From Vezdaea acicularis (taxonomy: Eukaryota), in assembly GCA_026025075.1 (NCBI GenBank), contig JAPEUI010000159.1:1-32482 (forward strand): 32,482 bases of DNA, in the 5' to 3' direction. Position numbers and translations under genes: made by a program. Positions 8,131 through 32,482 of this stretch are shown here, piece by piece (position 1 is the first letter of the stretch; the number at the start of each line of letters is the position of its first letter). The notes under the pieces are model-generated. The model was not told where the DNA came from and searched no databases. It worked only from the letters and a program-made list of their open reading frames with translations.

Positions 8131-8506
8131 TAAGAGTCCACCATTGAGCCCCTCGGACATCTCCTAGACGCATGTGCATCGCCTCGCCCCGACGTAATCG
8201 CCCTTTTTCGCCAGCATCACCATCTCTGCCGCCGGTTCCCAATGTATTTCCTCTGACGTAGCTTGCTATCCCCAGGATCCTTTGTCTTGACGACGGACGG
8301 ACGACTATCCTCCTGCAGGTCCAGTAGAGCGGACGGGTCCGTGTGCTTTCCCATCGGTCTTCAGCGGAACGGACAAAGCTGAGAGAGAACGCTCAATTGC
8401 AACGGCTACGGGGCAAACACAATCGAGAGCTCCCTTGTTTGATACTATCAAACTTGACGCCTTCGCTTGAGTCCGGTTGGGTTGTCATAGCATCAAGCTC
8501 ATCATC

Positions 8507-11391: not shown

Positions 11392-12248
11392 ATGGACGAC
11401 ATCGACGACATCCTCGCCTCCGTCTCCGCCGCCCCCATCATCCCCCAGCACACGCGCGACCTGCACACTCTCACGCGCCTCTGGGTCGCCGAGCGCAGCG
11501 CCCCGGAGGTTTTACCCTGGGATGCCGAGATGATGGGGAGGGTTCTGGAGGGAATACGGAAGCAGGTGAGGATTCTTTTTCCGGTGTTTACTTCAGAGGA
11601 TAGACTTTGCTTCATTCGGACTTGTGGACGGACGGAACGAGCTGACAGCTGACGGGTTAGAGGGGCCTAGATCGACCTCGTGGAAGCGGAGACCGGCAAC
11701 GAAGACCCCCGCGCTAGCTTCCGCCTTATTATCATTCAGACGGAGCTCGAGCGCTGGAAGTATCTCGTAAGGAGCTATCTGCGCGCGAGACTAGCTAAGG
11801 TATTTTCCATCCACCCTCCTCTGCCCTATGCGCCCCAGCCGCCCAGTCCCACACACAGAACACTAACCCCCTCGTTCTCTCTCGCGTATAGATCGACAAA
11901 CACGCTCTCCACTACCTCCGCCAATCCACCTTCCCCTCCGCCTCCTCCTCCCCACCCCTCCTCAATCCCTCGGAACTAGCGTACGCACGAACGCATCAGT
12001 CGTTGCTACAAGCGCATTATCAGGCCTCCTTCCTCAATGCGTTTCCGGAGCAGTTGAGAGGATTGGAGGATACGGCGGGGGGCATCTCGATGGTTGAAGA
12101 GCCGGATTTGGAGGCCGTGGTTTGGGTTAGGGTGCTGGCTGAGGGGGTGGAGGTGGAGGGGGAGAGGCAGGAGAGGGGCGCGGTACTGGTTGTTAGGTGG
12201 AGGAGTGTGAGGGGGGGGGTGCTCCGGGGAGGGGTCGAACTGGTTTGA
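11392..12248 (+). CDS. SLD5: GINS complex subunit Sld5 (GINS4), 3 exons
   Basis: Exons 11392-11565, 11671-11799, 11892-12248. Motifs [52 protein letters not shown] and [16 protein letters not shown] are typical of fungal Sld5. Confidence 0.92.
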
Positions 12249-13005
12249 GGTGGAGGGAGGGGGGGTGGGTTGGGGTTCGTAGGGATGATATTGAATTGCT
12301 GGTGGGATGTCCTGGTTTTATAACTAATATGGGGTGACCTTACGGGTGGCTCGGCGGACATGCGAGAGCTCATTTCGGTCCGTTGAAATGAGGGATAGCC
12401 TGTTTTTCGGTGATTCTATCTGCCCTCATCGCGCTTAACAATACTGAATTAAATTCCAAAAAAATAAATAAATTCATAAGATTCAAGCTAGCGCATCTGG
12501 GAACATCAGACTGATCATCAGAAGACGGTAGTGAACAGCAATAAACCGCCAGATATAGCAACTGCGCACGCGACACGGCTCTTTTCGAAACGTTCCGCAC
12601 CAATCACCCAGATCGCCTCGTAGCTACGCTCGTAGGCGGTCTCTCAAACAGCATTACAGCTTCAAGTCTTTCAAATAAACTATAGACAGCAGAGCTATGA
12701 CTACAAGTGAATTTCTCCGCAATTTGCCGTTTTCCATACGTTATCGTAGGCCGTTCTCACCGAGAATTAGCATGACGTGAGTTGTGGCGTTTGGCTCTGC
12801 ATCCAAACGGCTTGGCACCCAGGAAATACCCAACCACGAGCTTGCGACTCGGCAGAGAATCCTCGCCAACTATCTTTCCCATATCTTTTGTCACATTCGC
12901 TGTCCTTTTCTTATACCGCGTGTGTAGCACCTTTTGGGGGCTGCTTGTGAGCATACTTACTTCTGATAGGCAGATCCTAGAAGCTTACCGTTGTAATAGT
13001 TTTAC

Positions 13006-15886
13006 ATGGCTCCACCACCGAATCCCGCTTCCTCGACGAGCAACAGTGGGACGAGATCGGCTTCGTTACAGCCAGCGCCGAATGTCGAATCTTTGAACGC
13101 TCCGGCTACCAGCCCTTCGGGAATTGCTACTTCTACAAGTAATCTTGCAGGAGATCATTCAAATGTTTCTTACAAGAAGAAGCGCCGTCGCCGTAAGAAG
13201 AGGGATCGTCGCGAGTCTTTCGCCGCGCCTTCGGACGACGCCAGTTCAATGGCGGCGCAGACGAATTCTAACAGAGACCTTCTCGATGTCCCTGATCGCA
13301 CTGAGAGATCTCAAAGCTTTTATCGGTTGGGGCATGATCAGAATTTGAGCAACACAAGCATGGACAGCGAGGCACTTCTGGACCATCGGTTTGTTCTCGT
13401 TCCTTCCAAATTCACCGCCTGGGAAGAAGAATAATTAGGAAAAGAAGCTTATAGTCGATGGGAACCTAGTGAACAGACGCCTTTGAGACCTCGCAGATCT
13501 AGCACGATAGCTCAATCAGCATTTGGCCAGCGGCAGGGCCAGTACGAGAGTACATCTTATCGCCAGCCCTACGTGAATCCATTCGTTGATGGAGAAGGTC
13601 AACCAGGGCGACCACATCGATCAAGGCCTATACGGCGTCAGTCGGCTCGAGACAGCGAAGAAGAAGATGAAGCCGATGATAGAACCCCCCTGATGGGGAC
13701 GTCATATAGAAACAAGCTTTCTACAGCTATGGGTACGATCTATGGTGGTGTTAGCGGAGAAAACAGATCACCAAGGGATGGATCAAGACATTCTACAAAT
13801 ACGTCTAGATCTAGCCGTCGTCGTAAAAAGCTTCCAAGCCAGCCATCTTTCACTGGGGTGGGCGAGTATGATGTTAACAATCCGCCATCCGTCCCTGGAT
13901 CACCCACAATGGGGCCCAATGCATCATTGGACAATCTTGTGGCGGCGGGCTACTCAAGTGCTACACGTGGAGGTCATGCAGGGCCGGGGCCGTTAGGAAA
14001 TGACCAAATCATAGACATCATTGATGATAACGGCGTAGGAAACCCCTATGGAACTAGCTCATCTCCAGCTTCTCCTCGAGGACCTCTTCAACGACGGAAC
14101 ACGATAGCTTTAGGCGCTGAAGAGGACGTCTGCTTTCCTATTGAAGGACTATCAGAATTGGGCGATGATGACCGCCATCACCACCATGGCGAGGGAACCT
14201 CACCCCAAGGGCAACGGAGAAGTCGCCGTCGCCGGTGGCCAGAACTATCCGTGTTGGAAGACTGGAGCAGAGAAGAGAAAGAAGAGAAAAGTGAACGAAT
14301 CGGCGCAAAGAAAATAAACGAGCCAGTTCTCGTGGGTGGTAGGCTGCGACCGAATCTGAAGGCCGGCTGGCACAGAGAGGAAGAAGATGCGCCTTATCGA
14401 TTTACATATTTTAATGAAGAATTCCCAAGCACAATTCACAGCCAGACCATATCAGAACTTGTACAGCCTGGTTCTTCCTTCCAAGAGCTTTTCATCCCCG
14501 ATCCGCCAGAGCTGAGCGACGACTCTTCCGAGGACGAGTCCGATATGCAGTCACACCATGAAGGCCCAATGGACGCGCTCCATGCAAACGGAGGAACTTC
14601 GAAAGCGAACACGAGACCGCCATCCGTAACAGGCGATCGTAAGCCAGAGATGAGAACCCATTCTGGCGAAGCAACTCCGGCCCTACATAAGTCCGGAAAA
14701 CCAAAACGGTATGGAGCACGGCCAACCTTCTGGCTTGATGTTCTTTCACCGACAGAAACAGAGATGCGAGTCATCTCAAAGGCATTTGGAATACACCCAC
14801 TGACCGCAGAAGATATCATGTTACAAGAAGCGCGTGAGAAGGTTGAATTGTTCCGAAATTACTACTTTGTCAATTATCGCACATTTGAGCAAGACATGAA
14901 TAGCGATGACTTCCTTGAGCCGGTGGACATGTACGTGGTTGTCTTTCGGGAAGGTGTCGTTAGCGTAAGTGGCCCTTCCATATGCATGCTATCAATGCTA
15001 ATCATATCTAGTTTCACTTCTCCCAGACTCCACACCCTGCAAATGTGCGGAGACGGATTAGACAACTAAAAGACTATCTGATCCTGACCAGCGATTGGAT
15101 TTCCTATGCTATCATTGATGACATCACAGATGTCTTTGCTCCTTTGATTCAGTCTATCGAAGACGAAGTGGATGACATAGATGATGCAATTTTACAGTTA
15201 CATGCGGGCGAAAAACCGTCGGAGAAAGGGAACAAGAGCTCGGAAAAATCAGAATCAGGTGATGGAACTAGTGGAGAGAAAGGAGGCGATATGCTTCGGA
15301 GAGTAGGCGATTGCCGCAAAAAGGTCATGGGACTCTATCGGCTTCTGGGTAACAAGGCGGACGTTATCAAGGGCTTCGCCAAGCGCTGCAATGAGCAGTG
15401 GGATGTTGCACCAAGAAGCGAGATCGGGTTATATCTGGGTGATATTCAGGATCATATCGTAACGATGACCAGCAATTTGAGTCATTACGAGAAGTAAGTG
15501 GAGGCTAGATAAGGCCATCACTCTTTTTTTTCTATGCTGACGACAGCGCCTTTAGGATCTTGTCACGCTCTCACAGCAACTATCTCGCTCAGATCAACAT
15601 CCGCATGAACGAGCGGCAAGAACAAACCGCGGATGTGCTGGGACGCTTGACGGTGCTTGGGACGATAGTGCTTCCTATGAACATTATTACCGGCCTCTGG
15701 GGCATGAATTGCTTAGTCCCTGGGCAAGACGTGGATAACCTCTCATGGTTTTGGGGTCGTGAGTACCCAACGTGCGACTTTTTCGTGAGAACGAGGGGCT
15801 GACGTCATTCTCTAGTGACTGCTGGGCTCCTGTGCTTCGGCTTCAGTTGCTATTTCATCGCCAAGAAAGTATACCGCATCGTCTAA
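13006..15886 (+). CDS. CorA-family Mg2+ transporter (Mnr2/Alr1 type; Mnr2-like by recalled motif similarity), 5 exons
   Basis: Exons 13006-13388, 13470-14964, 15012-15493, 15556-15758, 15816-15886. Long disordered N-terminus, then WLDV...AFGIHPLTAEDI...REKVELF, YLGDIQDH, and two C-terminal TM helices flanking the GMN signature (TGLWGMNCLVPG). The family is certain; MNR2 versus ALR1 orthology needs a phylogeny. Confidence 0.92.
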
Positions 15887-17065
15887 TACTGAATTGGTTA
15901 TGGAGGGTAGTTTTTCGGAAAGAGCTCGGACCAAACTCGTATCTCTGCTCTGAACCTCCGTTGTTCAACGCTCCCGCTCAGAGGTGCTTTGACATATTAC
16001 AATTGGACACGAGAAAAGAGAAGAAGCAAAACCAACATGCAATCTGTTAGCTGACGCCATCCGCTTGCAGGCGCAGAGGGACGGGGCGATACCGGCATTT
16101 GTGCCTATCAGACCTAGCGAAGGATCTCTCATATATTGTATATACTCACATAATCCCGATCGAGCTGACTAGGAAACTCGAGAGAATGAGTGCATATCGC
16201 GAGACTCAATATTGTTACAGGATCACGCCATCATTACGACGACAATCCGCACAAATAATAGGCACAGCTCCAGCGGTTGCTAAACCTCTCACCCCACCCC
16301 GGCAAGAAGCGCGCTTTGAAGTCGCTCACCCACACTCCGACGGCCCGTGCCAGGAATTTCAACTGCCAAAATTACATACTCGTTGCTAAAGGATCCACCC
16401 ACGAACATGAAGGAGCTGGGCCATGCTGCGATCGACAGGGCGTGCGTTCATCTAAGGATTTGAGGTTCTGCACCCATAAGCTCGGACAGCCTAAGCCTTG
16501 TCCTACGCCGTTTTCTGCGTCGCTTGGTACCTCGAAGGGTACAACTACACGGAAACTTCCATGCGCGACTTATCGCGATCACCTATGCTCCGCAAAAAAA
16601 AGTCTGTCCCCGTCTCTCGCCTTTCAGCCACTGATCCCACTCCGGAAGCATCATCCACCTACGCCATCAGGGTACAGGAACCGAGAAAAGGTGCGCGGCC
16701 GCGTTATGGAACAGGATCGCATCGTTGGCCCAGGCATTCGATGCGGCCAGTTCATTCCACGTTTCCTCACAATGCCCCCCAACAAACCCTTGACGCCCCA
16801 ACTAGCGAAGGAAGCAATGAATACCCGCTGATCCGATGACGAAATACGCAACTATGATGTGAGGCACTGAGTCAATGCTTCTATCGGAGAATCTCAGACA
16901 GATTACCCTTTGCTCAGACAACCCTCCAATGCGCTCTACATAATGAAAGACCGTCGCCACTAGGAAAATGCCATGATGCAGAACAGCAATTAACAATACC
17001 ATGAGCTTGCATTGCCACGACGATCTTTCAAACCTCGGTGCGCAGCCCTCTGCTCGAGGCTTACA

Positions 17066-18130
17066 ATGCTCCCTACACTACGCCCGCCCCTCCGCATATC
17101 TACCTTCCTAATCAACCACTTTATTTTGCTCTCGCTCATCCACCCCTTCCTCGTCACCTCCACTTACCACCTCGACCGGGGCCTGCTCCTCTCTGCCCCC
17201 TTCTGCGCCCCCGTCCCCCTCCCCAGCCAACTCACTCTTCCAAAGGGCTTTCATAGAAGTTGGTACCCGACCGTGACTGCTCTATGCGCCGCGGCTGTCT
17301 ATGGCGGGCAACCCTATGGTAACATGGGCGGGAAATGCTTCCCCGAAATCCCGATATTCGACTTCGACCACTCCATCGCCGACAGCGAGCTCATCGACGA
17401 CCCGGCCATCCGCCAGGTCTGCTATGCCTTCTGCTGGTGCAAGATAACCGGCCCGTCGCCCGGCCGACTGGAGACTGGTGGCGTCTACGAGGTCCGCCAC
17501 GGCCACCGCGTCGACCTGCGCAACGGCGGCATTGTTGTCCATGAGAACGGCCAGACCCTCACTATCCAACCCCCCACCGAGCCCATCCAGCTCCTGCCCG
17601 GCGAGCACGCCCACGAACACACCGCGCCCAGCCCCGCACAAGAAGCCGGCGCCTGCGCCACCAGCCCGCGCGCCGGAGAGACCTGCCAGCAGACGCCAGC
17701 TCCCGCACCAAGCGATGACGGGGCCAGCACCTCCGGCAGCTCCGGCAGTCATGACATGTATCTCCCCAGCTGCGGACGCAGCTGCGACAGCATGGCCAGC
17801 TGTAGCTCCGACTTCGACGCCGAATGCGCCGCCTGCATCCAGGAGCTCATCTATCAGGACATCGAGCCCGAATACCTCGACCCCGTCTTCCCCACCCAGC
17901 CGAGCGCGTACGGTCACTCTTGGGTCTGTGGGAATAAACATGGCCGCAGGAAGGTTAGGAGGAGGGATAAGATGGGTTTGAGGGAGAGGGGCGGCGCGGA
18001 CCTCCAGCCGCCTGGCTTGCTCGGCATGCTGTGTAGGTGTAATGGGACCTTTGTCGATGAGCGGTGCTGCGATGCGCCGGATGGGATGGTTTGGGGAGGT
18101 GGGCCGAGCGGGGTGGTGGAGTTAATGTGA
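17066..18130 (+). CDS. Intronless cysteine-rich hypothetical protein, probably secreted (354 aa, 18 Cys)
   Basis: First ATG of the long ORF is at 17066. A hydrophobic N-terminal stretch (ISTFLINHFILLSLIHPFLVTS) is followed by clustered Cys motifs (CYAFCWC; CGRSCDSMASC; CRCNGTFVDERCC). Strong C-ending codon bias supports coding. Confidence 0.7.
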   Translation: MLPTLRPPLRISTFLINHFILLSLIHPFLVTSTYHLDRGLLLSAPFCAPVPLPSQLTLPKGFHRSWYPTVTALCAAAVYGGQPYGNMGGKCFPEIPIFDFDHSIADSELIDDPAIRQVCYAFCWCKITGPSPGRLETGGVYEVRHGHRVDLRNGGIVVHENGQTLTIQPPTEPIQLLPGEHAHEHTAPSPAQEAGACATSPRAGETCQQTPAPAPSDDGASTSGSSGSHDMYLPSCGRSCDSMASCSSDFDAECAACIQELIYQDIEPEYLDPVFPTQPSAYGHSWVCGNKHGRRKVRRRDKMGLRERGGADLQPPGLLGMLCRCNGTFVDERCCDAPDGMVWGGGPSGVVELM

Positions 18131-18631
18131 GGGAAAAAAAGGAGGAGTTGTGGAAACAATCCATTGGGACGACTGGATTCGCGTCTTGCGACGAATTACA
18201 GCATTTGGGGTAACGCAAAAGGAGGAGATTTATTTTTTCTTCTTCTCCTTTCTTTCTTTTCTACGTACATATATTAGGGGGAACTTTTCTCTGCTGCTTG
18301 TAAGTATTAGGGTTTCCGGGGGAGTTTATGGGCTCAAAGCAAAGGTCTGAGCGATACACACGCATACATGGCATGGCAAATTTGTGGGATTATTACATTC
18401 GAGGATTTTACGGATAATTCATAGAACAAGTCATCTCGTCCGTTTATTGTTACATGTGACTATGTGAGTCCTGAACACCTCCCTGCTGCCCTTTTTTGCT
18501 CTATGAACCCTTTAGAGCAATACAAGGAAGCCCTTAAAACGCCGAGGCCTCTCCAATTTCGTTCGCCTTCCATGCTTAGAACCAAGGACAAAGCCAGTAC
18601 AGGACAAGTGCAACCACGCAGCTCTAAACGG

Positions 18632-19613
18632 TCACCTCTGGGGCGCCAGCCCCATGAAGCGCTGTCTTAGCATGAGTACGGTATTGCGATCTTGCTCGGG
18701 CATTCGTGCGAGGTCTTCGGGCGACAGATTCATGACCTGCTGGATCAATTCGCTTTGCTGGGGGAGTTGGGGCTGCGGGATTACGGGGGGTGGGGGTTGA
18801 TATGGCTGGCCATACATTGGGGGTGTCGGAGCTTGAATCCCTCCAATGACGGGGGGTACGGGTGGGTATGGCGGAGCGGCTGGAGGTAGGATGGTTTGTG
18901 GCTGGACTAGCTGAGGGGTGGGCGTCGCGCCTTGCTGGGCGCTCTTCTCTACGACAGACTGGAGAGCGGTGGTATCTACTAAGCCCATGAGAAGCAATGC
19001 TTGGAAAAGGGCATATGAGAGTTGTGGCGCTTGTTTGAGTAGCTCGGTAGCTTTTGCTGGGTCTTGCATGACTAGCCCTTTCATCTGTGATAGGATGTCG
19101 AGTAGTTGTGGAGCTGGCAGCGTGGCCAGAGTTTTGGAGATTGCATCGGGGCAGGTTAAGCCGGGCTCGAGGTCTCTGCCTGGGGGTAAAGGCGGTAAGA
19201 TGCCTGATGAAGCTTGAGGGGGTGGTGGAGGATAGGCAGCCCCGTTCTGGGGGAGCGGAGGAGGGGCACTATAGCCTGCAGGCGCGGCGTCGTCTTCACC
19301 TCCCTCGTGCGAGAAATCCACTCTCAGCTTCCGCCCCATTATTTCAAAGTCGTTGAGATTTCGGACGGCGGAGGATGCAGAGTCGGCATCTTGAAACTCA
19401 GCGAACCCGAAGCCTTTCGGTTTACCCGTCTCGCGGTCGTGGACGAGGCGGAAACTGAGGACCTTCCCGACAGAGCCAAAGGTCTCGATGATTTGTTCTT
19501 CTGTGAGCCCTATAGTGCAGTTCAGTGACCGTTAAAGAACAGCGGCGCGAGGAGATCATACCATATGGAATGTTTCCAACAAAAACAACTCTTCCTCCCT
19601 TGTCTGGGGGCAT
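18632..19613 (-). CDS. RNA15: Cleavage stimulation factor subunit CstF-64 / Rna15, 2 exons
   Basis: Exons 19613-19562 and 19509-18632. RRM with RNP2 VFVGNIPY and RNP1 KGFGFAEF, hinge domain (CPDAISKTL...APQLSYALFQALLLMGLV), and C-terminal CSTF_C-like tail (LIQQVMNLSPEDLARMPEQDRNTVLMLR). Confidence 0.93.
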
Positions 19614-19971
19614 GCTTGCCTTCGTGTTATGTAAGATGAAGATATGCCGTTGTTTGAATGATCTTTGAGGTCGCTCAATGTGAAAGGTCTGGAGGTGAGA
19701 AAATGTTGCTACAAGGGTGAAAGCGTCGGGCTTCTTATATGTATGGGTTCAAGTTGATGAAGTGCAAAGGGATATTCGCCGGCGACTCAAGAAGTTCGTG
19801 CTGCAATTGGTCGACTTAGCGAGGCGGCCGTAATGAGCTAAGCTCGACTCCTCCACATTTTCCATCTTGAGACTGGAATAACAGAAGCTTGCACAGCTTG
19901 AAAAACAATAGTCTCAAGCTCCACCTCGACCCGCTTCTTCCTCAAACGGACATTTCAAAAGATTTGGAAAG
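19614..19971. promoter_or_regulatory. Short divergent (probably bidirectional) promoter region between RNA15 and PHB2
   Basis: Head-to-head start codons at 19613 (-) and 19972 (+) are separated by only 358 nt. Confidence 0.6.
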
Positions 19972-21065
19972 ATGGCACGAGATCCTCGGGAGACCTGGGC
20001 TAGGTTTCAACAGACACTACAATCTGCTCAGCAGCAAGGGAGGCGTGGCTTCGGAGGTACCCCAAAAGGCGCCTTCGGGGGTGCTGCAGGCCTGATTCTC
20101 CTCATCGGCGGCGCTGCAGCGATCAATAATGCCCTTTTCAATGGTAAATGGCCTTGTTGACTGTCACAAACGTATGTCGGACCAGCTTACTGATCATCTA
20201 TTAGTTGACGGTGGTCATCGGGCGATCAAGTATACACGAATAGGAGGAGTTAAGAAGGAGATCTACCCGGAAGGTATGGAAAGATACCAGGAAGTTCCTC
20301 CATGATCTACCTGCTGAGCTACTCTCCTAGGGACACATTTTAAAATACCGTGGTTTGAGACGCCTATAACTTATGACGTCCGCGCAAAGCCACGAAATGT
20401 AGCGTCCCTCACCGGAACCAAGGATCTTCAGATGGTCAACATCACTTGTCGTGTACTATCAAGACCCCGCGTAGATGCGCTTCCTCAGATATATCGCACA
20501 CTTGGCACAGATTATGACGAAAGAGTCTTACCTTCAATCGTGAATGAGGTCCTAAAGAGTGTCGTGGCACAGTTCAATGCCAGCCAACTGATCACACAGC
20601 GTGAAAGTGTCAGTAGGCTAGTACGCGATAATCTGGTCAAACGGGCGGCGCGATTCAACATCATGCTTGACGATGTCTCATTAACGGTACGCCCCTGAGA
20701 TCCTTGCCATATCGTGACGTCTTCCACTCACTGGCTTCTAGCATCTCGCATTCTCCCCTGAATTCACGGCAGCAGTTGAGGCTAAGCAAGTCGCGCAACA
20801 AGAGGCTCAACGCGCTGCTTTCGTGGTCGACAAGGCAAGACAGGAGAAGCAGGCAATGGTGGTGAGGGCCCAAGGTGAAGCTAGATCCGCGGAGTTGATT
20901 GGCGACGCTATCAAGAAGTCTCGAAGCTACGTCGATCTACGAAGAATAGAGAACGCCAGAAACATCGCAACAATTCTTGCGGAAGGTGGTGGGAAGAACA
21001 AGCTCTATCTTGATGCCGATGGCTTGGGACTGAACGTTGCGGAAAAATACGAAGAAAAGAAGTAG
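19972..21065 (+). CDS. PHB2: Prohibitin-2 (mitochondrial SPFH protein), 4 exons
   Basis: Exons 19972-20143, 20205-20273, 20331-20686, 20742-21065. Motifs [69 protein letters not shown] and [13 protein letters not shown]. Confidence 0.96.
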
Positions 21066-21725
21066 TGGAAGGGCCAAGACCGTGTCGCATCATGGATTAG
21101 ATTAAACCCTCTCCACACTGTATTATTTACACTTCTCATATTGCCCCAAGTGCAGCAGGTACTTTCCTCAATAAAAACCATAGTGATTTAATGCATAGCG
21201 TCGCATTGTACTACCTGTCCATAAAACGTGAGGCTTTTGGTAACAGCTCGACGATTGGACTAAAGAAGCGAGCCAACCGCGGTTCTCAAGGGCCGCGCAG
21301 CCAGAGCTGAGGTGTGGCAAAGACCCATACACTTTCAGCTGGCGTGGGTCGCTCTGGCTCGTGCACGGGCCAAATCAGCTTCTTGACTCGAGGGAGACGC
21401 AGAGAACGAAAAGATTCACTCTTCTGGCTTCATGCATCTATTTCTCCACCTTTCTCATGTATCTTAGCCTTGCGCATCATCTCTGTCGCATTTAAACTTG
21501 ATACGAGACCACGAGGATATGATTTCTTTCGATAGATACCCTTACGAGTGACGACTTCTTGTTGATTTTACAGTTCGGTGATCTTCCTATAATATTGCTG
21601 GTGGCTGGTGAGCCAGCAGCAGCTTAGCGCCATTCGAACCCGTCACAACAACGCGGAACCACCCAAAGCTCGTGCAGCGCCTGCAGGCGTAAGTTGACTC
21701 GTTGTGGACTACACTCACTTCTGCC

Positions 21726-24700
21726 ATGTTCAGCAGGAGAGCAAAGAGTCAAGACGAGGACAGACCTGCCCGTCGGGGCTCCGAATCTATTGTGTCCTCT
21801 TCAAGCAGCCGAAAACCTTCACGTGGTGATTTTATGCCATCGACGACCTCATACGCCTCGACTTCACGAAGCGCATATTCTGGGACGGCGCCAGCAAGTG
21901 TTGCAAGCTCATATGTGACTGCTGCGACCGATCGACGCGACCCCGAACCAGGAGAGTCGCAACGAGCGCTCGTAAGGTCCGAGAGTATGCAGGACTCGAG
22001 GGACTCGAGAGATCGCCGCGACTCGACCCTCCGAGAGCGGTCACGAAGCCTCGACAGAGAAAGTAGTCAAGGAGGGCATCGTAGAAAGAAGAAGCATCAT
22101 CATCGATCCGGTAGTGGTGATACTGAACGACCCAGGGAGCGATCCCGAAGCGCTGACCGTGAGTCTAAGAGAGATCGGTCAAGAAGCCGTGATAGGGAGG
22201 GAAGGAAGAAGAAACACCATCATCATGAAAGGCTCGATAAGGACGACAAGAGCGGAAGAAGCGAGAGAAGGAGTCGGGACGAAGGGTCTGAATATGAGGA
22301 GAAGAATCGCGACCATCGACGTAAGAGTAGTGACCGTCGTAGTCGAGACGAGCGGTCTGAATTGGACGACATAACCGATCGCGACGATTATCGACCTGAA
22401 AGGAACGATCGCTACAGCCGAGACGAAGAATATGAGGAAGAGGATAGGAAATATATTGAGGACAGGAGAGCGAGCAGGGCCCCGGATCGTGGGCTGAGCC
22501 GAGCTGGTCCCGGCGAGGGGGCTACATTTTCTGCTAGCGGTAATTTCGACGCTCAGGTTCACAGTCAGAACTTCAACCAATTCCCTGGCCAATATGACGG
22601 CAACATTCCAGGAGCCGCAGATGACTACGCCGGTGCTATTCCGGGCAGCTTTCCTACTAGTCAAGAAGGACATCATGAAGCGTCGGTCCACGTGCCAGAT
22701 CAGTTTCCAGGGCAGTTCCCCGACCAGAGTGCTGCTCCCTATCGGCCACCTATAGCCTCGACTGAGGGAGGCCCAGGCGCAGCCGCTGATTACTATGGAA
22801 GTGCAAATGTAGAGCAGTTTGTCGCAGAACAGCCGGGCGTTCGACCTCAGCCCCCATCGCTGATCATTGGAGCAGAGCCGCACCTTATGGCTGCTTCTCC
22901 AAACAGTGCTCCACCAGTCGAACCATCAGCCGTGGGAGGAATTGGTGCTGCAGCTAGCTTTTATGGAGGCGACGGTGCGAACACTCCAACGTACGAGGCA
23001 AGGCCCGATAGGCCGCCCAATGCTGGGAATCCTGGAAGGCTATCCTCGAGTGGAGTTGGGATCGGTACTGCGCTCGGGGGCGCTGCGTTAGGATATGCAG
23101 CAACGCAGGCGTTTGGTGGAGGAAACTCGAACAAGCCATCCAAACCATCACGGCCTGGACGACTTGATGGGTCTGGGTCAATCAGTGGGAATTTTCAGGC
23201 AGGCGTCTCAGAAAACAGCACTTCATATTACCAAGAAGGGTCAGCCTCAAGTTACCATACTGCATCTGCACCCGCAGTGCCAACTCTCGGCGCAGCGGCT
23301 GCGGGGTCTGCTGCTGGCTACATGGCTGGTCATCATGGTCAACACGAAACGGCTGACAATGGCTACATCTCAGCCTCAGCCGGTAGGCCTCCACGCCCGG
23401 GTAAGCACTCTTCACATTCGAACGCCGGTTTGTACGCCGCCGGGGCCCTTGGGGCTGCTGGGCTGGCTGCTGCCGCCTTCCATCATCATCATCATCATCA
23501 TGGAAAACCATCGGGAGACTATGGTTCGGATGCGGGATTTTCATCTTCAAGCGGCCTGGCGATGGGGCGGAAGCGCAAAGGCCCAGCTTCAAAGTTCCTT
23601 GACTTTTGGCGAGACCCTTACGAAGTTGGTCGGATGGAGGATTATACTGAATATATAGGTGTTTGCGATCGCTGCTTTTCGCCTGGTACAACTGCCCGAG
23701 ATGCCCCACGCAAACACCATTATTCTCACCGAAGAGGTTCCAGTGAACGCCTCGTAGGCGCTTCACGTGTGACCAAGAGGAGGCGATACGAGTCTTCCGA
23801 TGACGGTGGATCTAAGCGCAAAAGTAATGCCAAATCATGGATTGCGACTGGCCTCAGTGGATATGGCCTGGCAAAGGTTGGAAAATCGCTTTTCGGGCGC
23901 AATCGAGACTTTGATGATACATACAGCGTTCGGTCGGGACGAGCTGATCGAGGTTCGACATACACGCTCGAGGAGAGTGACTCGGTCTCGCGAGGCAGAC
24001 GTGACCGCTCAAGGTCTCGTAACAGGAGTCACTTTGGATCGGATGCGCTTCTTGGTGCGACCATAGGCGGAGGCCTGGCTGCAGTAGCGCGGTCAAGCTC
24101 TCGTCATCGAAGTCGTTCTAGGGATAACCGTCGTGTGGAGACTGGTATTACAAGTGATGGGAAACTTTACAGGAAGGACTCACAGGGTGGCTTCTTTGGT
24201 GGAGGCACCACCACTTATGTCGAAGACAGCCGCCGAAAAAAGCATCACCATCGGTCAAAGTCTCGCTCAAGATCCAGATCTAGGGAGCCTCGCCGTGTTG
24301 AGAAAGGGATTACCAGCGATGGGAAAGTCTACGTGAAGGATTCGAAAGGCGGATTCTTTGGCGGGCCTAAGACTACTCTTTATGAAGACCCTTCTCGCAG
24401 ACGGTCACGTTCACGATCCCGGTCCCGGTCTAGATCAAAGGATCGCCGAACTGGAATTCTTGGTGCTGCGCTGGGCGCCGCAGTTGGCGCTTCTGCTATG
24501 AAAGCAAGTTCACGAACCCGAGTCCGGTCGAGGAGCAGGTCGAGGCGACGAGGATCTAGCTATATCTCACGCGGGCTTTCTGACAAAAGCCCAGATCGCG
24601 AGACTGTCATTAGCCGGACGAGCTCAGGGAGACGTAAAGTAAACCGTCGCTCGCCATCTGGATCCTATATAGACGTTGTAACTCCTGGTGAAGAGTCAGG

Positions 24701-27700
24701 CACTGGTCTCTTCGGAGGCTTTTTCAGTTCTCCATCTGCGGGCGTTCGTAAGAGTTCAAGGCCAAAGAAGCGTCGGGGTTTCTTCAATTTCGGCAACGGA
24801 TCATCCTCATCATCATCCTCCGTAGACTACAACCTGGCCTTTGGAGGCGAACTTGACAGACGCAAAGGAGGGAGAACCGGCAAGTCAAAGCGAAGTGACA
24901 GCAAGGCGGAAGATGCCGCTCTGATCGGGCTTGGTGCTGGCATAGCGAGTGCAATATCGATGGCCTCTAGAGGAGAAAAGCCTAAGAGCAAGCTCGGCTC
25001 AAAGCGTCCGGAGGTGATTGCGGTTAAGGAGTCCTCTCTTCCTGGGTCAAAGCCTCAACGAGATTCAGTGCGGAAGTCAAAACACTCCTCTTCAAGCTCT
25101 TCAATAGAGGAGGCAGAGTGGGAATCGGAGTCCGAGGACGAAGTCCATTCCGGGCTTGCCTATGGCTCGCTGCACCGCAAGAGCACCGATACCTTGAATT
25201 CTGACGCTTCATCCGGCACCGGCTGGTGGAACTGGCGGTGGAGAAAAGACAAGAACAAAAAGAAGAGAGATTCTACTACCGATTTTAGCTCCATGGCCGG
25301 ACCTGCCATTGCGGGAATGGCTGGTGCTGCCGCTGGGACTGCTCTCGCATCTGGACGTCGAGACGATGGGGGCACAACGAGCGTAAGCAGTGTTCCATCG
25401 CTGAAGAATGTTTACCCCATGGCTACGCCTGATGCTACTAAATTCGATGTCACTCGTCAAAGTTCTACGTCTTCTATCCAACTTCAGCAACAACCACCAC
25501 AGCAACCCATTTATACCTCACGGCCCGACCCAGTACCCTTGCAATACCCGCAAGCACTCCCTCAAGTTCCTCCTACAATGTTCTCCAACCCTTCGGTACC
25601 GCAAACTTATAATGCCCCTACAGGGCCTCCTGTTTTCGGAGGACCGGATCAGTATCGACGATATGATGCCCAAGGACGATCCCAAGAGGTGTCTTCGACG
25701 TCGCGTGATGCTAACATCAACATCGGCTCACGAAGGAGACGTAATTCGTCGCCAACAATTGAGCATGAAGATCCGGAACTTTTTACTTCTGCCGCCGCGG
25801 TGGATATAAAACGACGTATGTCGCTGCGTGATGAGCCTTTAGAATCGAACTTGACCCTCGTTAAGAGTACCCGCAGTCGCGATCGAGTGACTCAATCTGA
25901 CAGCGTTTCCAAGGAAGAGAGAAACAAAAGGTCTGATAAGATTTATAAAGAGGAGAAGAAAGAAAAATCTGACCGTATTATCAAAGAAGATCGCAAGGAA
26001 AAATCTGATCGGCCTTCTAGAGAAGAACGAAAAGAGCAATCTAGGCGCCGTAAATCCGCGGAAAAGGCGGCTTTAGAGCGGGCCAAGGAGAGTTCGAGGC
26101 AGGACCGCGAGGGTGCTAAGAAGTCAAAGCGAAGTTCAGTTAGTCGAGACGATAGTACGGAAAAGAGGAATTCAGGAATATCGGCCGGAACGATAGCGGC
26201 CGGCGCTGCTGGCGCGGTCGTTGGAGCAGTCGTTGCGAGCGAGAAGCGAAAGAATGATCGCCGTGAGGATACAGAGGATTTGCCGTCCTACTCGGATCTT
26301 AAGGATCAACGCAATGACTACCCTCGAGATTACAAAGAACCTTCCGACCGTCAGACAGAGATCGCAAGAAAGGCTGCCTCCAAGATTGTCGCTGAACGAG
26401 AGCAGTCTGATAGTGACGACTCTCCTGTTCCTTCTGTCTTGGATAAATATAATCAGAAAGATGAAACAATGGCTTATTACGTTACCCCACCAGAGCTTCT
26501 AGACAAAGTGAGAGGCCCAGTGCGATATGGGGAATCCCGCTACGACGTAAAAGCTGTTCACCCTGAGAACGCCGATGCCGAAATTCAAGTCCGCAACGTG
26601 ATCGTGCCGCAAATCATCACCGCCGAGCCTAACGAGCCCCAATTTCCGACATATCAATCGTCTTACGGCTTCCAAAGTCGGGATGAGAATCAGCCTATAA
26701 ATTTGGATGCTCGCAAAGTTCCCTCTTTGATGCTAATTCAACCAACCCCAGAGTCCAGTGTGGCCGGCTCCACGAAAGGGAGCGACACCGCCCCTCCGTC
26801 CCCGGAGATTCTACCAAAGGCCGTGCCTCCTCAAGTCCGAGAACCAACGAGGAAAAACACAGGGTCAAGGGTTACTTGGGGTGATGATGAGACGCTAGTC
26901 TACGAGGTACAGACTCCTGAGATAGAGAGAGATCATTATGTGGGATCCCGTCAAGAGAATCCTCCTCTGGAGGGCCCACGAAGAGAAACGCGACCTCCTG
27001 GACCCAGCCAGTATTCTATACAGTCACACCAAAGAGATGCTGCCTCTGAGCCGGCATATGGCGCTGAGAATAGAGCTTCTATCGATCACCAAGATCCGCA
27101 GATGCCTGGCTCTTACGGAAATGATCTTGAATTTGCAGCTGTAGTTGCAGCTGGGCTTGAGAGCACCGGATTCCCTGCATCAAAGGTGCTCGAAGATCCA
27201 AACTTCCATAGGCGAAGCTCTCCACCTGGCTCTAATGAGCCAGACCTCCGTGAAGAGAGCCATCAGAGACAAATGCCCACTGTGGGCAGGTTCGCCCTTG
27301 ACTCACCTGGTACTGAGGGCGCACCTCCAGTAAGGGGTTATGTTGAGGGTGAGCTTCCACCCACACCGAAAGACCCGCAACCTCCACAAAGAGACTCTTA
27401 TGGCTTTGACGAGAGGCCAGAAGAGGCTCTCGGTAGGAATGACAGCCGCGAAATAAATGAGAGCTCCAGTAGAAAAGAACGTCGTGAGAGAAGAGGCGTT
27501 CCTGAGGAGCGCGGAACAAGCGAGGCTAAGTACCCATTAAAGTACGCTGACGACTATGATAACCCAGTGAGCCCTAATACCGTGCCTATTTCTGGCCCGC
27601 CTCTTGTTGCTGAGCCAGAGCTTTACATCAATGATCCACCTGTTACAACTCAACCAACTCGGAAGAGATCTGGATCTAGTTCTCAACCTTTCGAGCCTGC

Positions 27701-30700
27701 ATTGGCTGGTGCCGCTATTGGAACGTTTGCGGCGGCTGCAGCAACCATGAATCAGAAGTCAAAGGGTGATCGTGATATCAGATCTGACGTAGGCGTTCCG
27801 AATGGTAGACGGAAGGATTACCGGGAGGTAGTTCAAGAGACATCGAGGCCATACAGCTCCGATTTAGGTTCAAAGAATCGTGAGCCTGACCAAATTCCGT
27901 TAAAGCCAATCAACCCACTTGACTTCCTTGACCGTTCCGATGAGGCAGTTTCAGACGCCCCAGCTTATGTTGATAAAGAAGAGTCTTCAACGCGCGAGTA
28001 CGTCTCAGCCGAAGAGGAACCGGAGCCCTTTGAAGAGCATCAGCGGTCTAGGAACAAGCATATAGATAGAGACCAACAGCTATATCATTTGCCAGAAGAT
28101 GAACTACGCCCAGGTGTCAACGCTTCATCTCGAGAAGAACATACTGAGAAGGTAGGAAAGGAATCGAGACGAGAAGAGGAGATGTATGTTCCTCCGGAAA
28201 GAGACAGCAGATCTGCCAGCGCGGACACTATTACGGAAGCTCTCGATGAAGGCAAGAGAAAGAAGGAGCACAGGCATAGCGATAAGTTTGACTTACCTGA
28301 ACAAGAAATCTCCCCTGAGCTTGAGAGCAAGTCTTCCGTCTCTGAACCCGCTACCGAAGATGGTGAAGAAAGCAAGAGACGGAAGAAGAAACGGCATAGC
28401 AGTCGATCCGATTCACCTAGCCAAGAAATGTCCCCAGACCCAGAGAGTAGATCTCCTATATCTGATACCGCCACAGATCTTGGCAGTGAGAGCAAGAGAC
28501 GGAGAAAGAAGCGTCATAGCGATCGCTTCACTTCACCTGTACGAGAGTCTCAATCAACAGCGGGCTCCGAGCTCGTGGAAGGGGCCGATGAGGAACGGCG
28601 CAAATCCAAGAAGAAGCACAGGCGCTCTACTACTGACATTGATGATACTGCCTCTACTATTTCATCTACAACAGCCTTCGAAGATGATAAAAGTAAGAAA
28701 AGCAAGAGTAAACTTGGTGCAGTCTTGAGCCTCTTCGGAAAGTCAACAGAATCCTTGACTAAGGAGGCAAAAGAAACAAAGTCCCGAGACTCTAAAGAAG
28801 CAGAAGATAACCTTGACTCAGAAAAGTCAAAGAAAAAGCATCATCGCAGAAAGTCGGAAGACCCAAGTACTGCTGAAGCTGTCTATAGCGCTGCGGCTGC
28901 TACTGGCGCCGCCTCTCTGATGGTGGATGACAGATCTGGCTCAAGTAGAAGGGATTCATCAAGACGCAGAGATTCGTCTAGGGTAAGAGATTCCTCTAGA
29001 ATAAGGGATTCCTCTAGGACGAGAGAATCATCTAGAAATGGAGACGATGGCCACCGGCATCATCGTCGTCATCGATCTACCAACGATGGAGATGAACAAT
29101 CGAGTCGTGACTATGAGGACGAGTCGCGAGGACGAGAAGACGATGTAATTTCTTCAGAGCTCCCTTGACTATAGCGAAGCTAACATGTATTAGGACCCTG
29201 AGCTCACTAGTAACAGGGACTTGAAAGCTCCCAAAGAGCACAAACATCATAGACGAAGGTCTAGTGCATCTAGAGATGATTCAAGCAATTCTTTTTTAGG
29301 TAAAGGTTCGGAGGGTCTAGCTCCGTCCGATAGCGCCGTAGACAACTTGCGCTCGGACCCTACCGAACCTACTGTCCCTGCAACCGGAGCTTTATTGGAC
29401 GCGGCAGCATTGCCAGCGTTACCACTTAGTCGACCTTCATCCCCAACAGAGATTGGAAGTCAGAGGGATCTTCCATTAGAGCCGTCAGACATTGAGCCAC
29501 CAGACATTGCACCATCAGACATGCCGCCACCAGACATTCCGCTATCAAACATTCTGCCATCAGACACTCCGCTATCAGAGATTCCACCATCCCCGAACCT
29601 CAGTGCTAAGTCTACTGATAAACGCCTTTCAGCTGTACAGACTGGTGAGACGTCGCTTCAAGCAGGTCCTGCCGAAGGCGCGTCTCCTACGATGAAGATA
29701 CCAATCGGTTGGCGCAAATCTTCAACGCCCAGCCATTCTAAATCTCCATCGCTCGCCTCACCAGAACCAAATACCTTGCAGCCTTCTAAGGGGTCGGCAT
29801 CGAAGCCATCAAGATCTCGTCCAAACTCAGTTGAGTTCAGGAGCTACAGTAACGAGATTCGACCTCTATTTCTAGTAGAACGGCACCCCCCTAAGCAAGA
29901 GCTAGATCTTGAGGAAAACCTCCCTTCGTTGCCGTCGAGCCGAGCGAGCTCTGCAGCACCGTCTGAGCATGACTCTGAAGAAGAGCACGCCAAGGACATG
30001 TCCAGTGAAGTTGCTCGGGATAAATTTCTCTCAGAACTCGATACCACCCCCAGAAAAGCCGCAGAGAAGCCACTAGAGTTCTTAGATTCGGCGCAATCAA
30101 CTCCAAAAGCATCAGAATTCCCAAAAGAACTCAAGGAGACGCCAATTGTGACCGCCGAACCTCCGCCACCTATTCGCTATATCTACAATACCTCCCCGCC
30201 GCCACCCATTGCAAAAATAGACCGCAAAGCATCGCCGAATCCTCAACAACGCATGGTCCATAGTGTTACTGATCTCTTTCCAGGCCACAATGCTGGAGAG
30301 CGGTCTCGCCTAGTTGACGATATTAAGGATCTTCCTCCCTTGCCAAAGAGCAGGCCACAATCACCAATTTCTCAAGAGATCTCGCAAGAAGTCCCAAATC
30401 CGTTTCATTTCCTCGACGAAGAAGTAGAAGATATTAAGGATCTTCCTTCTTTGCCAAGGAGCAGGTCACAATCGCCTTCCACTCAGAAAATCTCACAGGA
30501 AGTCCCAAAACCGCTTCGTTCCCTTGACGAAGAACCTGACGATATCAAAGAGCTTTCTCCCCTGCCAAGGAGCAGGTCACAATCGCTATCTACACAAGAA
30601 ATCTCGAAGGAAGTCCCAAATCCGTTTCATTTCCTTGATAAAGAGCCTGACAACATTGATGCTGCAATCGCGAGTGTAATAACGCAGATCAAGACTCCTA

Positions 30701-32482
30701 AGAAATCGGAGGAGGAGTCATCTACGCGAGGACTCGATGGCAAGATCGAGGAGGCAACTAAGAAGATCGACAAAATATGGGACGATTCTTCAGCGAAGGT
30801 CAATGACAGCGAGTCGAGGAAGTCGGAATCTCCATTGCGGAAACATGATCGGGAAGAGCTCGTTAGCGGGTCATCACTCTCTCAAGACGACAAGGTTCGA
30901 AACATTGTTGCCCAAGTTGGACCGCCACTTGAGGACCCTCCTACCAAGAAAGATCTGTCATCAGAAATTCCATCTGAGACTTCATTCGATCGGCTTCGTG
31001 AGCAAGACGATGTCTTTGAAAGTCCAAGCGAGGTCTCAGGCAAGAGGAGTAAAAAGAGCAACAAAGAGAAACGAAAGGGATCAAAAGCCCTTAAAAATGA
31101 GTCTAAGCCCACCCTGTCATACATTTCTGATGATACTGCCACACTCGTCGAGGAACCAACGCCTTTGACTGCCGAAGAACCGCATGCTGTTACAACCGAA
31201 TTAGAATCCGAATCCAAGCTAGAATACGACCTCAAGCAGTCCAAAAAGAACAAGAAAATGGAAAAGAAGAAAGGCCGCAAGGATTCCACGCCGTTGGAAG
31301 AGGAAGAAGATTCTCAGCCACCCTCGCGTAAACAGAGCAAGAAGGATAAGAAGAAAGACAAGAAGAAGAAACAAACTCTTGATCTGTCTGAAGTTACTTC
31401 CGAGTCAGCTTTATCCAGCGATGTTCCTGGGGGTGCTCAACCGCCCCTTCTAGTGGATCGAACTGAGGAATTGCGGGAAGTCATTGAGCCTAGTCGTTCA
31501 GCAGCTGTTACAGTGCCAGTGGTACCCTCGCACATCGATGCGCCATCTGATGTTGATCAACTTATTCAGAGGACGCGGCAAAGCCAAGATGCCAGCCAAC
31601 AAGGCACGAGAGAAGTGCCAGTAGAGTCTAAACCGATTCTCCCACCTGAAGATCTTGAGGAGCAACCCCCAATAGTCAAGCCAAACATCCCTGAAACCAT
31701 TGTGGAGCAAGAGGAACCCACTGAGACAAATCGGTTGAACGCTGCAAACCTCATACAGCGCACGTGGCGCGGCCATTCTATCCGCCAGCAAGTCAAAGAG
31801 CTAGGTCTAAGCTTGGAACCTCAAAGGGTTGATCCTGCCGAGCACGGCGCCGGACCCGAGCACGACCAGTCTATTGAATTCCCCAGCATTCCTGAAGAGT
31901 CTTCTACTAAAGACACTTTGCCCATCGCACTCGCGGAAGGGGGTGAACTTGGTCATAGTGAAAAGCAGGCTGAGGCAGTTGAAAAGTCGCCAGAACTCAC
32001 TACTGTAGTTGAAACCTCTAGTCAAGCGTCTGCCCCAGTCGTCACGATACCAGAAGTGTCAAGTGAGGTTGATGGTCAACTGAATGCTGCAAGAGTGATA
32101 CAGAGAACGTGGCGAGGCCGTTCCATTCGTCAGCAGGGAAAGAAAACCCTACAGCCTGAATTCATCAGCCTTCCAGCTGGAGACGATGAGGATCTTGTCG
32201 AAGCCAAGGAGGAAGTAAAACATGAATCGCCAGATATTACTGACGCCGTTTTGGATCGCGAAAAACCTTCGCGAGATGTTGATGGTCAACTGAACGCTGC
32301 AAGAGTAATACAAAGAACATGGCGAGGCCATTCTATTCGCCAGCAGGGAAAGAAGGCGCTACAACCTGAACTCGTTAGCCTGCCAGCTGGAGACGATGAG
32401 GATCTTGTCGAAGCCAAAGAGGAAATAAAACTCGAATCCCCAGATATTACTGACGCCGTTTTGGATCGCGAAAAACCCTTGC
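21726..32482 (+). CDS. lah: Giant disordered repeat protein, probable Woronin-body tether leashin (Lah); 3' end lies beyond the window
   Basis: Exon 21726-29144 (2473 codons), 49-nt intron 29145-29193 (GTAATT...GCTAAC...TAG), then exon 29194 to >32482, read codon by codon with no stop (1096 codons), giving at least 3569 aa. Blocks I recall from Pezizomycotina leashin/'involucrin repeat' proteins: SVASSYVTA, QFPGQFP...GAAADYYG...QPGVRP...AEPHLMAASP, YTEYIGVCxxCF...APRKHHY, RPNSVEF...IRPLFLVERH...LPSLPSS. These are followed by an acidic linker with poly-Lys tracts. Identity is from motif recall, not a database search. Confidence 0.8.
23481..23501 (+). repeat. (CAT)7 microsatellite encoding a His7 tract
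   Basis: catcatcatcatcatcatcat, in frame within the giant ORF. Confidence 0.95.
24129..24440 (+). repeat. Two-copy 162-nt (54-aa) coding duplication
   Basis: RRVETGITSDGKLYRKDSQGGFFGG starts at 24129 and RRVEKGITSDGKVYVKDSKGGFFGG starts at 24291; each is followed by an RS-dipeptide tract. Confidence 0.9.
25911..26042 (+). repeat. ~4 copies of a 36-nt (12-aa) charged repeat
   Basis: KEERNKRSDKIY / KEEKKEKSDRII / KEDRKEKSDRPS / REERKEQS starting at 25911, 25947, 25983 and 26019. Confidence 0.85.
28242..28545 (+). repeat. ~2.5 copies of a degenerate 120-nt (40-aa) repeat with basic clusters
   Basis: LDEGKRKKEHRHSDKF (28242), GEESKRRKKKRHSSRS (28362) and GSESKRRRKKRHSDRF (28482). Confidence 0.8.
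28947..29036 (+). repeat. 5 copies of an 18-nt repeat encoding xR(D/E)SSR
   Basis: RRDSSR RRDSSR VRDSSR IRDSSR TRESSR. Confidence 0.9.
29482..29592 (+). repeat. ~7 copies of a degenerate 15-nt repeat (5-aa unit, P-S/P-D-I-x)
   Basis: ccgtcagacattgag ccaccagacattgca ccatcagacatgccg ccaccagacattccg ctatcaaacattctg ccatcagacactccg ctatcagagattcca, in the frame of exon 2. Confidence 0.85.
30319..30651 (+). repeat. 3 copies of a 111-nt (37-aa) tandem repeat
   Basis: Units start at 30319, 30430 and 30541. The first unit is DIKDLPPLPKSRPQSPISQEISQEVPNPFHFLDEEVE. Confidence 0.92.
31753..31785 (+). other. IQ calmodulin-binding consensus motif (stand-alone copy)
   Basis: Encodes IQRTWRGHSIR in the context LNAANLIQRTWRGHSIRQQ, an exact match to IQxxxRGxxxR with the typical preceding AA. 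Confidence 0.8.
32068..32482 (+). repeat. 210-nt (70-aa) tandem repeat with one IQ motif per unit; at least 2 copies, runs off the window
   Basis: Units start at 32068 and 32278. Unit 1 is VDGQLNAARVIQRTWRGRSIRQQGKKTLQPEFISLPAGDDEDLVEAKEEVKHESPDITDAVLDREKPSRD. IQ motifs are at 32098-32130 and 32308-32340. Confidence 0.93.

Follow-up and report, generated by a model that had tools for sequence, protein, structure and literature searches.

In myosin-type arrays, an IQ motif recurs every ~23-25 residues along one continuous helix that is stiffened by light chains. Complete IQ motifs usually hold Ca2+-free calmodulin, and such calmodulin is also held by the isolated IQ motif of the disordered proteins neuromodulin/GAP-43, neurogranin and PEP-19. 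In fungi, the tether known as leashin (Lah) is represented in Aspergillus fumigatus by AFUA_2G08060, which is annotated as 'involucrin repeat protein' and ties Woronin bodies to septal pores (PMC8227032, citing Beck 2013). Excerpts of Ng 2009 (PMC2690989) give leashin homologues as 5936-7480 amino acids (aa) long, with poorly conserved linkers that are acidic, rich in P, E, L and S (PELS) and repetitive, with lineage-specific repeats. This report concerns a giant gene on contig JAPEUI010000159.1 of Vezdaea acicularis. It lies at the end of the window, by which we mean the whole stretch of 32,482 nucleotides (nt) that was analysed. On sequence grounds, the gene is a Lah orthologue, of which the window probably holds roughly the 5' two-thirds, and its linker encodes three complete IQ motifs. 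The explanation that we favor, with a probability of about 0.5, is that the Lah linker gained an IQ motif that was duplicated and kept by selection, and that the copies form a predicted docking platform for calmodulin or light chains.

The motifs and the tandem units that contain two of them are listed here. Residues are numbered in a predicted spliced model of the gene, described below, and bit scores come from our own IQ profile, for which 18 IQ segments were taken from two unrelated IQ proteins.

31735..31791, + strand: IQ1, solitary; LNAANLIQRTWRGHSIRQQ; I is residue 3327; 28.8 bits
32080..32136, + strand: IQ2; LNAARVIQRTWRGRSIRQQ; I is residue 3442; 22.7 bits
32290..32346, + strand: IQ3; LNAARVIQRTWRGHSIRQQ; I is residue 3512; 25.8 bits
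32068..32277, + strand: tandem unit A, 70 aa; holds IQ2; a basic IQ half, then an acidic spacer
32278..32482, + strand: tandem unit B; holds IQ3; 68 codons, and then the window ends

A first-pass annotation of this DNA had reported three IQxxxRGxxxR motifs, each preceded by LNAAxx. A strict regular expression, [FILVM]Qxxx[RK]Gxxx[RK], applied to all six frames of the window finds them again in the + frame of the long open reading frame (ORF), with LNAAxx before each: IQRTWRGHSIR at 31753, IQRTWRGRSIR at 32098 and IQRTWRGHSIR at 32308. One further string of the window fits the expression, VQEPRKGARPR at 16672, which is unrelated. The last two motifs had been placed exactly 70 aa apart, and they do have this spacing (210 nt). 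They belong to a 210-nt tandem unit that Tandem Repeats Finder reports at 32068..32477 (period 210, 2.0 copies, 90% matches). IQ1 lies outside the tandem, 115 aa from IQ2. Within the 70-aa unit, the net charge is +6 over the 26 aa of the IQ half and -9 over the 44 aa of the spacer.

The scan with Pfam model PF00612 that had been recommended for this region gives E 1.6e-5 and 24.7 bits, above the curated cut-off of 20.3 bits. Two stretches pass, the better being aa 849-868 of the exon 2 product (P0001), at IQ1. In 5000 shuffles of the 3569-aa product, strict motifs occurred at a mean of 0.04; at least one was present in 3.9% of shuffles, and at least three in 0 of 5000. The three copies are paralogues, and therefore reflect one origin followed by duplication rather than three independent events. 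In a single-sequence AlphaFold model, the only helices are at residues 36-59 (24 residues, IQ2) and 107-131 (25 residues, IQ3), and the acidic spacer between the motifs has no predicted structure; the mean predicted local distance difference test (pLDDT) score is 53.8.

Selection on the motif was assessed by comparing the copies with one another over 19 codons around the IQ core, by using the Nei-Gojobori method and the Fisher test. IQ1 and IQ2 differ at 9.0 of 13.8 synonymous and 5.0 of 43.2 nonsynonymous sites (synonymous divergence dS 1.5, nonsynonymous divergence dN 0.13; p 2.7e-4). The corresponding values are 8.0/13.5 and 4.0/43.5 for IQ1 versus IQ3 (dS 1.17, dN 0.098; p 4.9e-4), and 6.0/14.3 and 1.0/42.7 for IQ2 versus IQ3 (dS 0.61, dN 0.024; p 5.0e-4). 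Amino acid changes between copies fall on x positions only (N/R, L/V, H/R), and all consensus positions of the complete IQ motif, together with the preceding AA, are kept in 3/3 copies. No relation is seen between the 20-codon flanks of IQ1 and those of IQ2 (pN 0.70). Because synonymous changes are near saturation while the core is kept, the comparison indicates that the 19-residue IQ core is under purifying selection. The many synonymous differences also make recent amplification or gene conversion an unlikely source of the identity among copies. Between units A and B, dN/dS is 0.11 for the whole unit, 0.04 for the IQ half and 0.16 for the spacer.

The motifs had been assigned to the unannotated second exon of the gene, and our gene model agrees with this assignment.

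21726..29144, + strand: exon 1 of the giant Lah-like gene; 2473 codons (from the ORF list and translation)
29145..29193, + strand: putative intron, 49 nt, GTAATT ... GCTAAC ... TAG (from direct reading of the sequence and ORF frames)
29194..32482, + strand: exon 2, partial; 1096-codon frame (ORF 29194..32481), open at the window end

The exon 1 ORF occupies 21693..29168 (+ strand, 2491 codons), and its first ATG is at 21726 (MFSRRAKS...). Removal of the putative GT..CTAAC..AG intron at 29145..29193 drops the stop of this ORF (29166..29168) and fuses both ORFs in frame. The predicted spliced model has at least 3569 codons, is free of stops and is still open where the window ends. No alignment with relatives crosses the junction of exons 1 and 2. 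The conserved blocks flanking the putative intron sit in one polypeptide in orthologues; because the exon 2 block shares a polypeptide with the exon 1 blocks in relatives, the two-exon model is supported.

To identify the gene family, the first 1200 aa were compared with 1.84 billion representatives, which yielded 245 matches at E<=1e-3 and 190 at E<=1e-30. Among the best 150 of the 245 matches, 69 are at least 4000 aa and 54 at least 5000 aa long, the longest having 7251 aa. The closest named relatives among the matches listed are from Vezdaea aestivalis (54% identity), Lignoscripta, Loxospora and Pycnora, which are lichen-forming or related ascomycetes, and more distant ones among the matches listed are from Penicillium and Aspergillus. 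One relative, P0063, is an 'involucrin repeat protein' of 5556 aa from Aspergillus fischeri. The relatives used in a collinear comparison are giant fungal proteins of 5000-7250 aa, and three conserved blocks of the window protein occur in the same order as in these Lah relatives.

23319..24011, + strand: best-conserved N-terminal block; aa 543-773 of the exon 1 product (P0002); FLDFWRDPYEVG...CDRCFSPGT...RKHHY
26604..27386, + strand: second exon 1 block; P0002 aa 1638-1898; matches P0063 aa 1266-1481, E 2e-14; collinear with the N-terminal block
29581..30393, + strand: central block in exon 2; P0001 aa ~130-400; at aa ~1900-2600 of many orthologues

The N-terminal block is 45% identical to P0063 aa 381-606 over 245 aa (E 1e-51). 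The central block matches P0003 with E 1.2e-21 and P0063 aa 1902-2048 with E 6.5e-11 (phmmer without the bias filter, blastp). The Pfam scan found no Pfam family in the exon 1 product. P0063 contains a hydrophobic segment with VV at 5321-5322, 235 aa before its C-terminus. For A. fumigatus Lah, excerpts of Leonhardt 2017 (PMC5345055) describe transmembrane mutations at V5303/V5304 and a C-terminal 288-aa targeting domain, LahC288. The position of VV in P0063 fits both features, and P0063 is therefore supported as a Lah protein. A Kyte-Doolittle screen for the transmembrane segment near the C-terminus, at a threshold of 1.6, flagged 3 of the 69 full-length representatives; this threshold was too strict (P0063 scored 1.39), and the count is uninformative. 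Residues 2401-3569 of the spliced model contain 43-45% PELS residues, are net negative and include several tandem repeats. This linker has no homology to orthologues except for the central block and acidic repeat motifs. The earlier description of a leashin-like gene is thus upheld by the three collinear blocks and the identity to the A. fischeri protein, and the motifs do lie within the Lah linker, in its repetitive, acid-leaning middle part.

We also surveyed whether IQ motifs are normal in Lah proteins. The relatives surveyed were the best 150 of 245 representatives (clusters at 50% identity) and 16 cluster members, 166 in all. No canonical IQ motif was found in these 166 relatives by the strict expression (applied to the 150 representatives) and our own profile, whose best score among them was 0.1 bit, compared with 22.7-28.8 bits in the window. 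The strict expression has 24 matches in the 150 representatives (549,945 residues), none of which is like IQRTWRG: 17 contain proline, mostly in a conserved N-terminal FQQRQRGPLDK-type string, and 7 are lysine-rich. Pfam IQ was absent at E<=0.1 from 10 of 10 orthologues of 4301-4943 aa. In the relatives surveyed, IQ motifs are thus not a common feature of Lah, and they appear to be specific to this lineage.

The FQQRQRGPLDK-type string occurs at aa ~440-500 of Aspergillus/Penicillium-like Lah proteins (P0063, P0094, P0103, P0106 and others). It passes a simple IQ expression, holds proline and scores nothing with IQ profiles, and so is a trap for surveys that use regular expressions alone. At the aligned position, the window has GRKRKGPASKF. 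The idea that Aspergillus Lah is commonly annotated as 'IQ calmodulin-binding motif protein' was dropped; its entries were found under the names 'involucrin repeat protein' or 'hypothetical protein'.

Searches with the IQ region itself (P0001 aa 820-1096) covered proteins of more than 5000 aa through the 150 family representatives. Against these representatives, phmmer with default filters gave no match at E<=10; when the bias filter was switched off or blastp was used, relatives aligned to the acidic half alone, and weakly (best E 0.003). The query matched nothing among proteins of 1919-5000 aa or 30-601 aa. Among proteins of 602-1918 aa, it matched two unrelated IQ-repeat proteins only (one with an ASPM-like Pfam set and one rich in poly-N/Q), in both cases through the motif alone. 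Among solved structures, the only match by sequence was Sp17, an IQ protein (E 0.07). Neighbors in the protein atlas are IQ clusters at 0.76-0.77, which is below the accepted level and is a lead only.

The acidic half of the tandem unit (LQPEFISLPAGDDEDLVEA) aligns to linker repeats of orthologues (PEFIALPSGDDDDL in P0033, LPIDEDSDL in P0014), and the IQ half falls on gaps in these alignments. An LPxx-acidic-L motif is present in 36 of the 69 full-length representatives. The acidic half also resembles the core of the Neurospora crassa R1 repeat, LPVDEDLDLLPALPES, as given in excerpts of PMC2690989. Because the acidic half is like Lah linker repeats and the IQ half falls on gaps, the unit looks like an ordinary one to which the IQ helix was added. 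In our reading, a typical acidic repeat of the Lah linker took up a basic IQ helix before it was duplicated.

Contigs from 4 of 7 public DNA runs matching the stretch were aligned to it; these runs may include the source sample of the window and so are not fully independent of it. A contig seen in two runs aligns to 32235..32412 with 5 differences, none of which is under IQ codons. Two of the differences, 32268 T>C and 32270 C>T, reproduce the letters at the extreme end of the window, and this contig therefore looks like the next unit downstream. A 737-nt contig tracks the unit up to 32281 and then continues into unlike sequence, and its 30 printed letters have, by eye, no stop in the frame of the gene; it is a plausible exit from the array. 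Word depth is 25.6 for a 92-nt contig on 32383..32474, compared with ~8-10 in unique flanks of the same run, and is raised ~2- to 3-fold at 32235-32482; word depth of run contigs is not equivalent to copy number. The array had been expected to continue past the window. We infer that it does so for at least one further unit and that it is short, with ~4 units and ~5 IQ motifs in all.

The window ends within the 210-nt repeat, and contigs of the public runs fragment at the same place. The contig probably ends here because the assembly broke at the repeat. Upstream of the break, a run contig covers IQ1, the unique spacer and IQ2 (31645..32202) with 0 differences, and a further one covers 29551..31627. 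Among metagenome contigs of JGI, a protein-guided scan for a downstream extension matched 544 stretches, of which none was confirmed as a relative, and scanning them for the IQ codons as an exact degenerate DNA pattern gave 0 matches.

We propose the following working for the element. An acidic, repeat-rich Lah linker would have gained a complete IQ motif in this lineage. The motif would then have been copied, leaving one solitary copy and others within a 70-aa unit made of a basic helix and a Lah-type acidic spacer, in ~4 tandem units. Each copy would form a short helix and bind, at its own site, a single calmodulin or calmodulin-like light chain, probably Ca2+-free. The tether could in this way park a handful of EF-hand proteins beside the septal pore and the Woronin body, and the IQ motifs would act as a local docking or sensor platform and not as a rigid lever. 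Lever-like stiffening is unlikely, because the motifs are 70 and 115 aa apart, the acidic spacer is unstructured and the helical fraction is small. A more ambitious version, in which calmodulin or Mlc1-type light chains on ~5 IQ helices make the tether a sensor of wound Ca2+, alter its conformation or its binding partners and so gate the speed of Woronin-body sealing, is a long shot judged from the sequence.

Other explanations of the array have to be considered beside a docking platform. The first-pass annotation proposed that calmodulin decorates the tether at regular intervals and that the rise in Ca2+ after wounding alters how stiff or long the tether is and so moves the Woronin body into the pore. 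In keeping with this proposal, the IQ motifs are confirmed and selected, excerpts of PMC2690989 take up the elasticity of the tether, and excerpts of PMC5745230 treat the entry of Woronin bodies into the pore, and a conformational change of Lah, as open or speculative. However, motifs separated by 70 and 115 aa, with an acidic and unstructured spacer, do not make one helix. Approximately five motifs would amount to ~125 residues of helix, against an expected protein length of more than 5000 aa, so any direct mechanical effect on length or stiffness should be small. The usual preference of complete IQ motifs for Ca2+-free calmodulin also counts against a response to Ca2+ of this kind. Moreover, a motif found in none of 166 relatives is not part of a general plugging mechanism. 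With only ~5 widely spaced motifs, stiffening at regular intervals in the manner of a myosin lever is doubtful, and we consider the Ca2+-driven proposal very unlikely. It is instead conceivable, if unlikely, that the basic amphipathic helices are 'stickers' for a partner without EF hands, such as the acidic linker itself (compacting the tether), an acidic membrane surface or another septal protein, and that the resemblance to IQ motifs is incidental to function. The opposite charges of the IQ half (+6) and the spacer (-9) and the net negative surroundings suit a sticker, and selection reveals constraint, not its cause. However, a generic basic patch needs no I, Q, G and W at fixed spacing, and in the three copies every position of the complete IQ consensus and the preceding AA are kept while x positions vary. 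The strong match to independent IQ profiles argues in the same direction.

The array might also be a neutral by-product, in which a chance IQ-like string in a fast-evolving linker was amplified by unequal crossing-over and has no function. Poor conservation and many lineage-specific repeats are typical of Lah linkers (excerpts of PMC2690989), 3.9% of shuffles yield a strict match by chance, and the motif is present in none of the 166 relatives. Nevertheless, recent amplification or gene conversion predicts few synonymous differences, whereas 6-9 are observed in 19 codons, and dS is ~1.2-1.5 and dN ~0.1 between IQ1 and the tandem copies, whose flanks have diverged beyond recognition. A functionless array is thus quite unlikely. 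A chimeric assembly at the repeat, or a wrong gene model that places the IQ region outside Lah, is in our view extremely unlikely. Such errors would be easiest to imagine at a window end that lies inside a repeat where public contigs fragment, and in a gene with no alignment across its exon junction. Against them, the Lah central block (aa 130-400) and the IQ motifs share one uninterrupted frame of 1096 codons, run contigs cover 31645..32202 (0 differences) and 29551..31627, from runs that may not be independent, and the codon-level pattern of selection fits the exon 2 frame.

Several points weigh against a docking platform on a Lah tether. The C-terminal septal-pore domain, which defines Lah function, falls beyond the end of the window. 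The survey of 166 relatives consists of the best 150 of 245 family matches, at 50% identity, plus 16 cluster members, and no close relative of the organism of the window is among these 150. The test of selection uses 19 to 68 codons, small counts and paralogues within one gene. The acidic spacer is itself constrained (dN/dS 0.16), so what is conserved between units A and B extends beyond the IQ half. The AlphaFold model of the IQ2/IQ3 region has low confidence. Finally, conserved I, Q, W, R, G and R alone cannot separate calmodulin from another specific partner.

An earlier remark that IQ motifs are not known to have been described for leashin agrees with the literature searched. In full text, no link of leashin with IQ motifs or calmodulin was found; the sole co-mention of leashin and calmodulin is incidental (a TAP-tag peptide), and Han 2014, Beck 2013 and the supplements of Ng 2009 were outside the scope of this search. 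The full-text literature likewise holds no co-mention of Woronin with IQ motif, or of Lah and Woronin with IQ domain. Woronin, calmodulin and septal pore are co-mentioned in full texts; among the matches listed, none has these terms in the title or abstract. The word 'calmodulin' is absent from the excerpts of Ng 2009 (PMC2690989), Leonhardt 2017 (PMC5345055) and Steinberg 2017 (PMC5745230). In excerpts of the last of these, the travel of the Woronin body into the septal pore and an active role of Lah are described as unresolved. A Lah protein with selected, canonical calmodulin-type sites would be a first hint of EF-hand or Ca2+ input on the tether, and it suggests that a 'non-conserved' linker can gain a discrete interaction module by modification of an ordinary acidic repeat unit. 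If Lah were Ca2+-responsive, this would be the first molecular link of wound Ca2+ to Lah, and the IQ array would be a natural 'add-on module' for asking whether Lah is active or passive in sealing. The significance is limited by the confinement of the feature to one unsampled lineage, in a fungus whose nearest sampled relatives are lichen-forming ascomycetes, and by its absence from the 166 relatives, which keeps it out of the general mechanism.

Other parts of the gene and of the window are as follows. The linker contains two further repeats without IQ motifs, one of which is listed below; the second, at 29474-29591, has an in-frame 5-aa unit (PSDIx-like) in ~7 copies. The first ~1500 aa of exon 1 (window 21726-26000) are net basic, with RS/RD/RSRSRS runs and KKKHHH tracts, and exon 1 encodes a His7 run (CAT x7, 23481-23501). 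The region at 1248-21065 contains ordinary eukaryotic housekeeping genes, as judged by Pfam on ORF pieces.

30312..30638, + strand: tandem linker repeat without IQ; 111-nt (37-aa) unit, 2.9 copies, 79% matches (Tandem Repeats Finder); DDIKDLPPLPKSRPQSP...FHFLDEE
1248-1850, - strand: acyltransferase (Pfam)
3443-6162, - strand: DNA polymerase phi/Pol5-like, three ORF pieces (Pfam)
9181-9969, + strand: rhodanese domain (Pfam)
13435-15497, + strand: CorA-like Mg2+ transporter (Pfam)
18632-19531, - strand: CSTF2/Rna15-like RRM protein (Pfam)
20318-20698, + strand: Band 7/SPFH protein, directly upstream of the Lah gene (Pfam)

Among known systems, the window protein is most readily compared with the Lah tethers (N. 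crassa LAH-1/LAH-2, A. fumigatus AFUA_2G08060 and A. oryzae AoLAH). It shares with them, in unchanged order, an N-terminal block and two central ones, as well as the giant size class seen among its relatives and a PELS-rich, net negative and repetitive middle part. Its acidic repeats of the LPxxDDxDL type match the R1 consensus, as published in the excerpts available. Unlike these tethers, its linker bears canonical IQ motifs, which 0 of 166 relatives do. It also differs from N. crassa leashin, which is described as acidic, in that its first ~1500 aa are net basic and RS/RD-rich.

The motifs themselves are like those of myosin necks (for example, myosin V), IQGAP/Iqg1 and ASPM, with which they share the complete consensus AAxxIQxxxRGxxxR and the Pfam family. 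The IQ region has its best database match in an ASPM-like IQ-repeat protein. However, the window protein is without a motor, GAP-related or ASH domain, and its spacing of 70 and 115 aa, with a spacer that is acidic and non-helical in the model, is unlike a myosin-type lever. A further IQ protein is P0170 (703 aa, from a Logan record), which is unrelated, rich in poly-N/Q and has four widely spaced IQRTWRGH-like motifs, each followed after ~35-45 aa by a second, IQ-like LIQTRARI helix. From the layout of its motifs, spaced IQ arrays that are not levers occur elsewhere.

Neuromodulin/GAP-43, neurogranin and PEP-19 offer another comparison, since in both cases an IQ helix would lie in a disordered chain, and a role as a store or platform for calmodulin is plausible by analogy. 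These proteins are small and neuronal and have one motif, whereas the window encodes several in a giant organelle tether, and we claim no homology to them beyond the motif. The PEVK spring of titin has been reported to bind the EF-hand protein S100A1, and we know of no IQ motif that is involved. A parallel between Lah and titin is discussed in excerpts of PMC2690989 and PMC5745230, and is called speculative in the latter. By analogy only, the tether described here may resemble titin PEVK as a giant elastic tether with a P/E-rich, disordered spring that is possibly modulated by a Ca2+ sensor.

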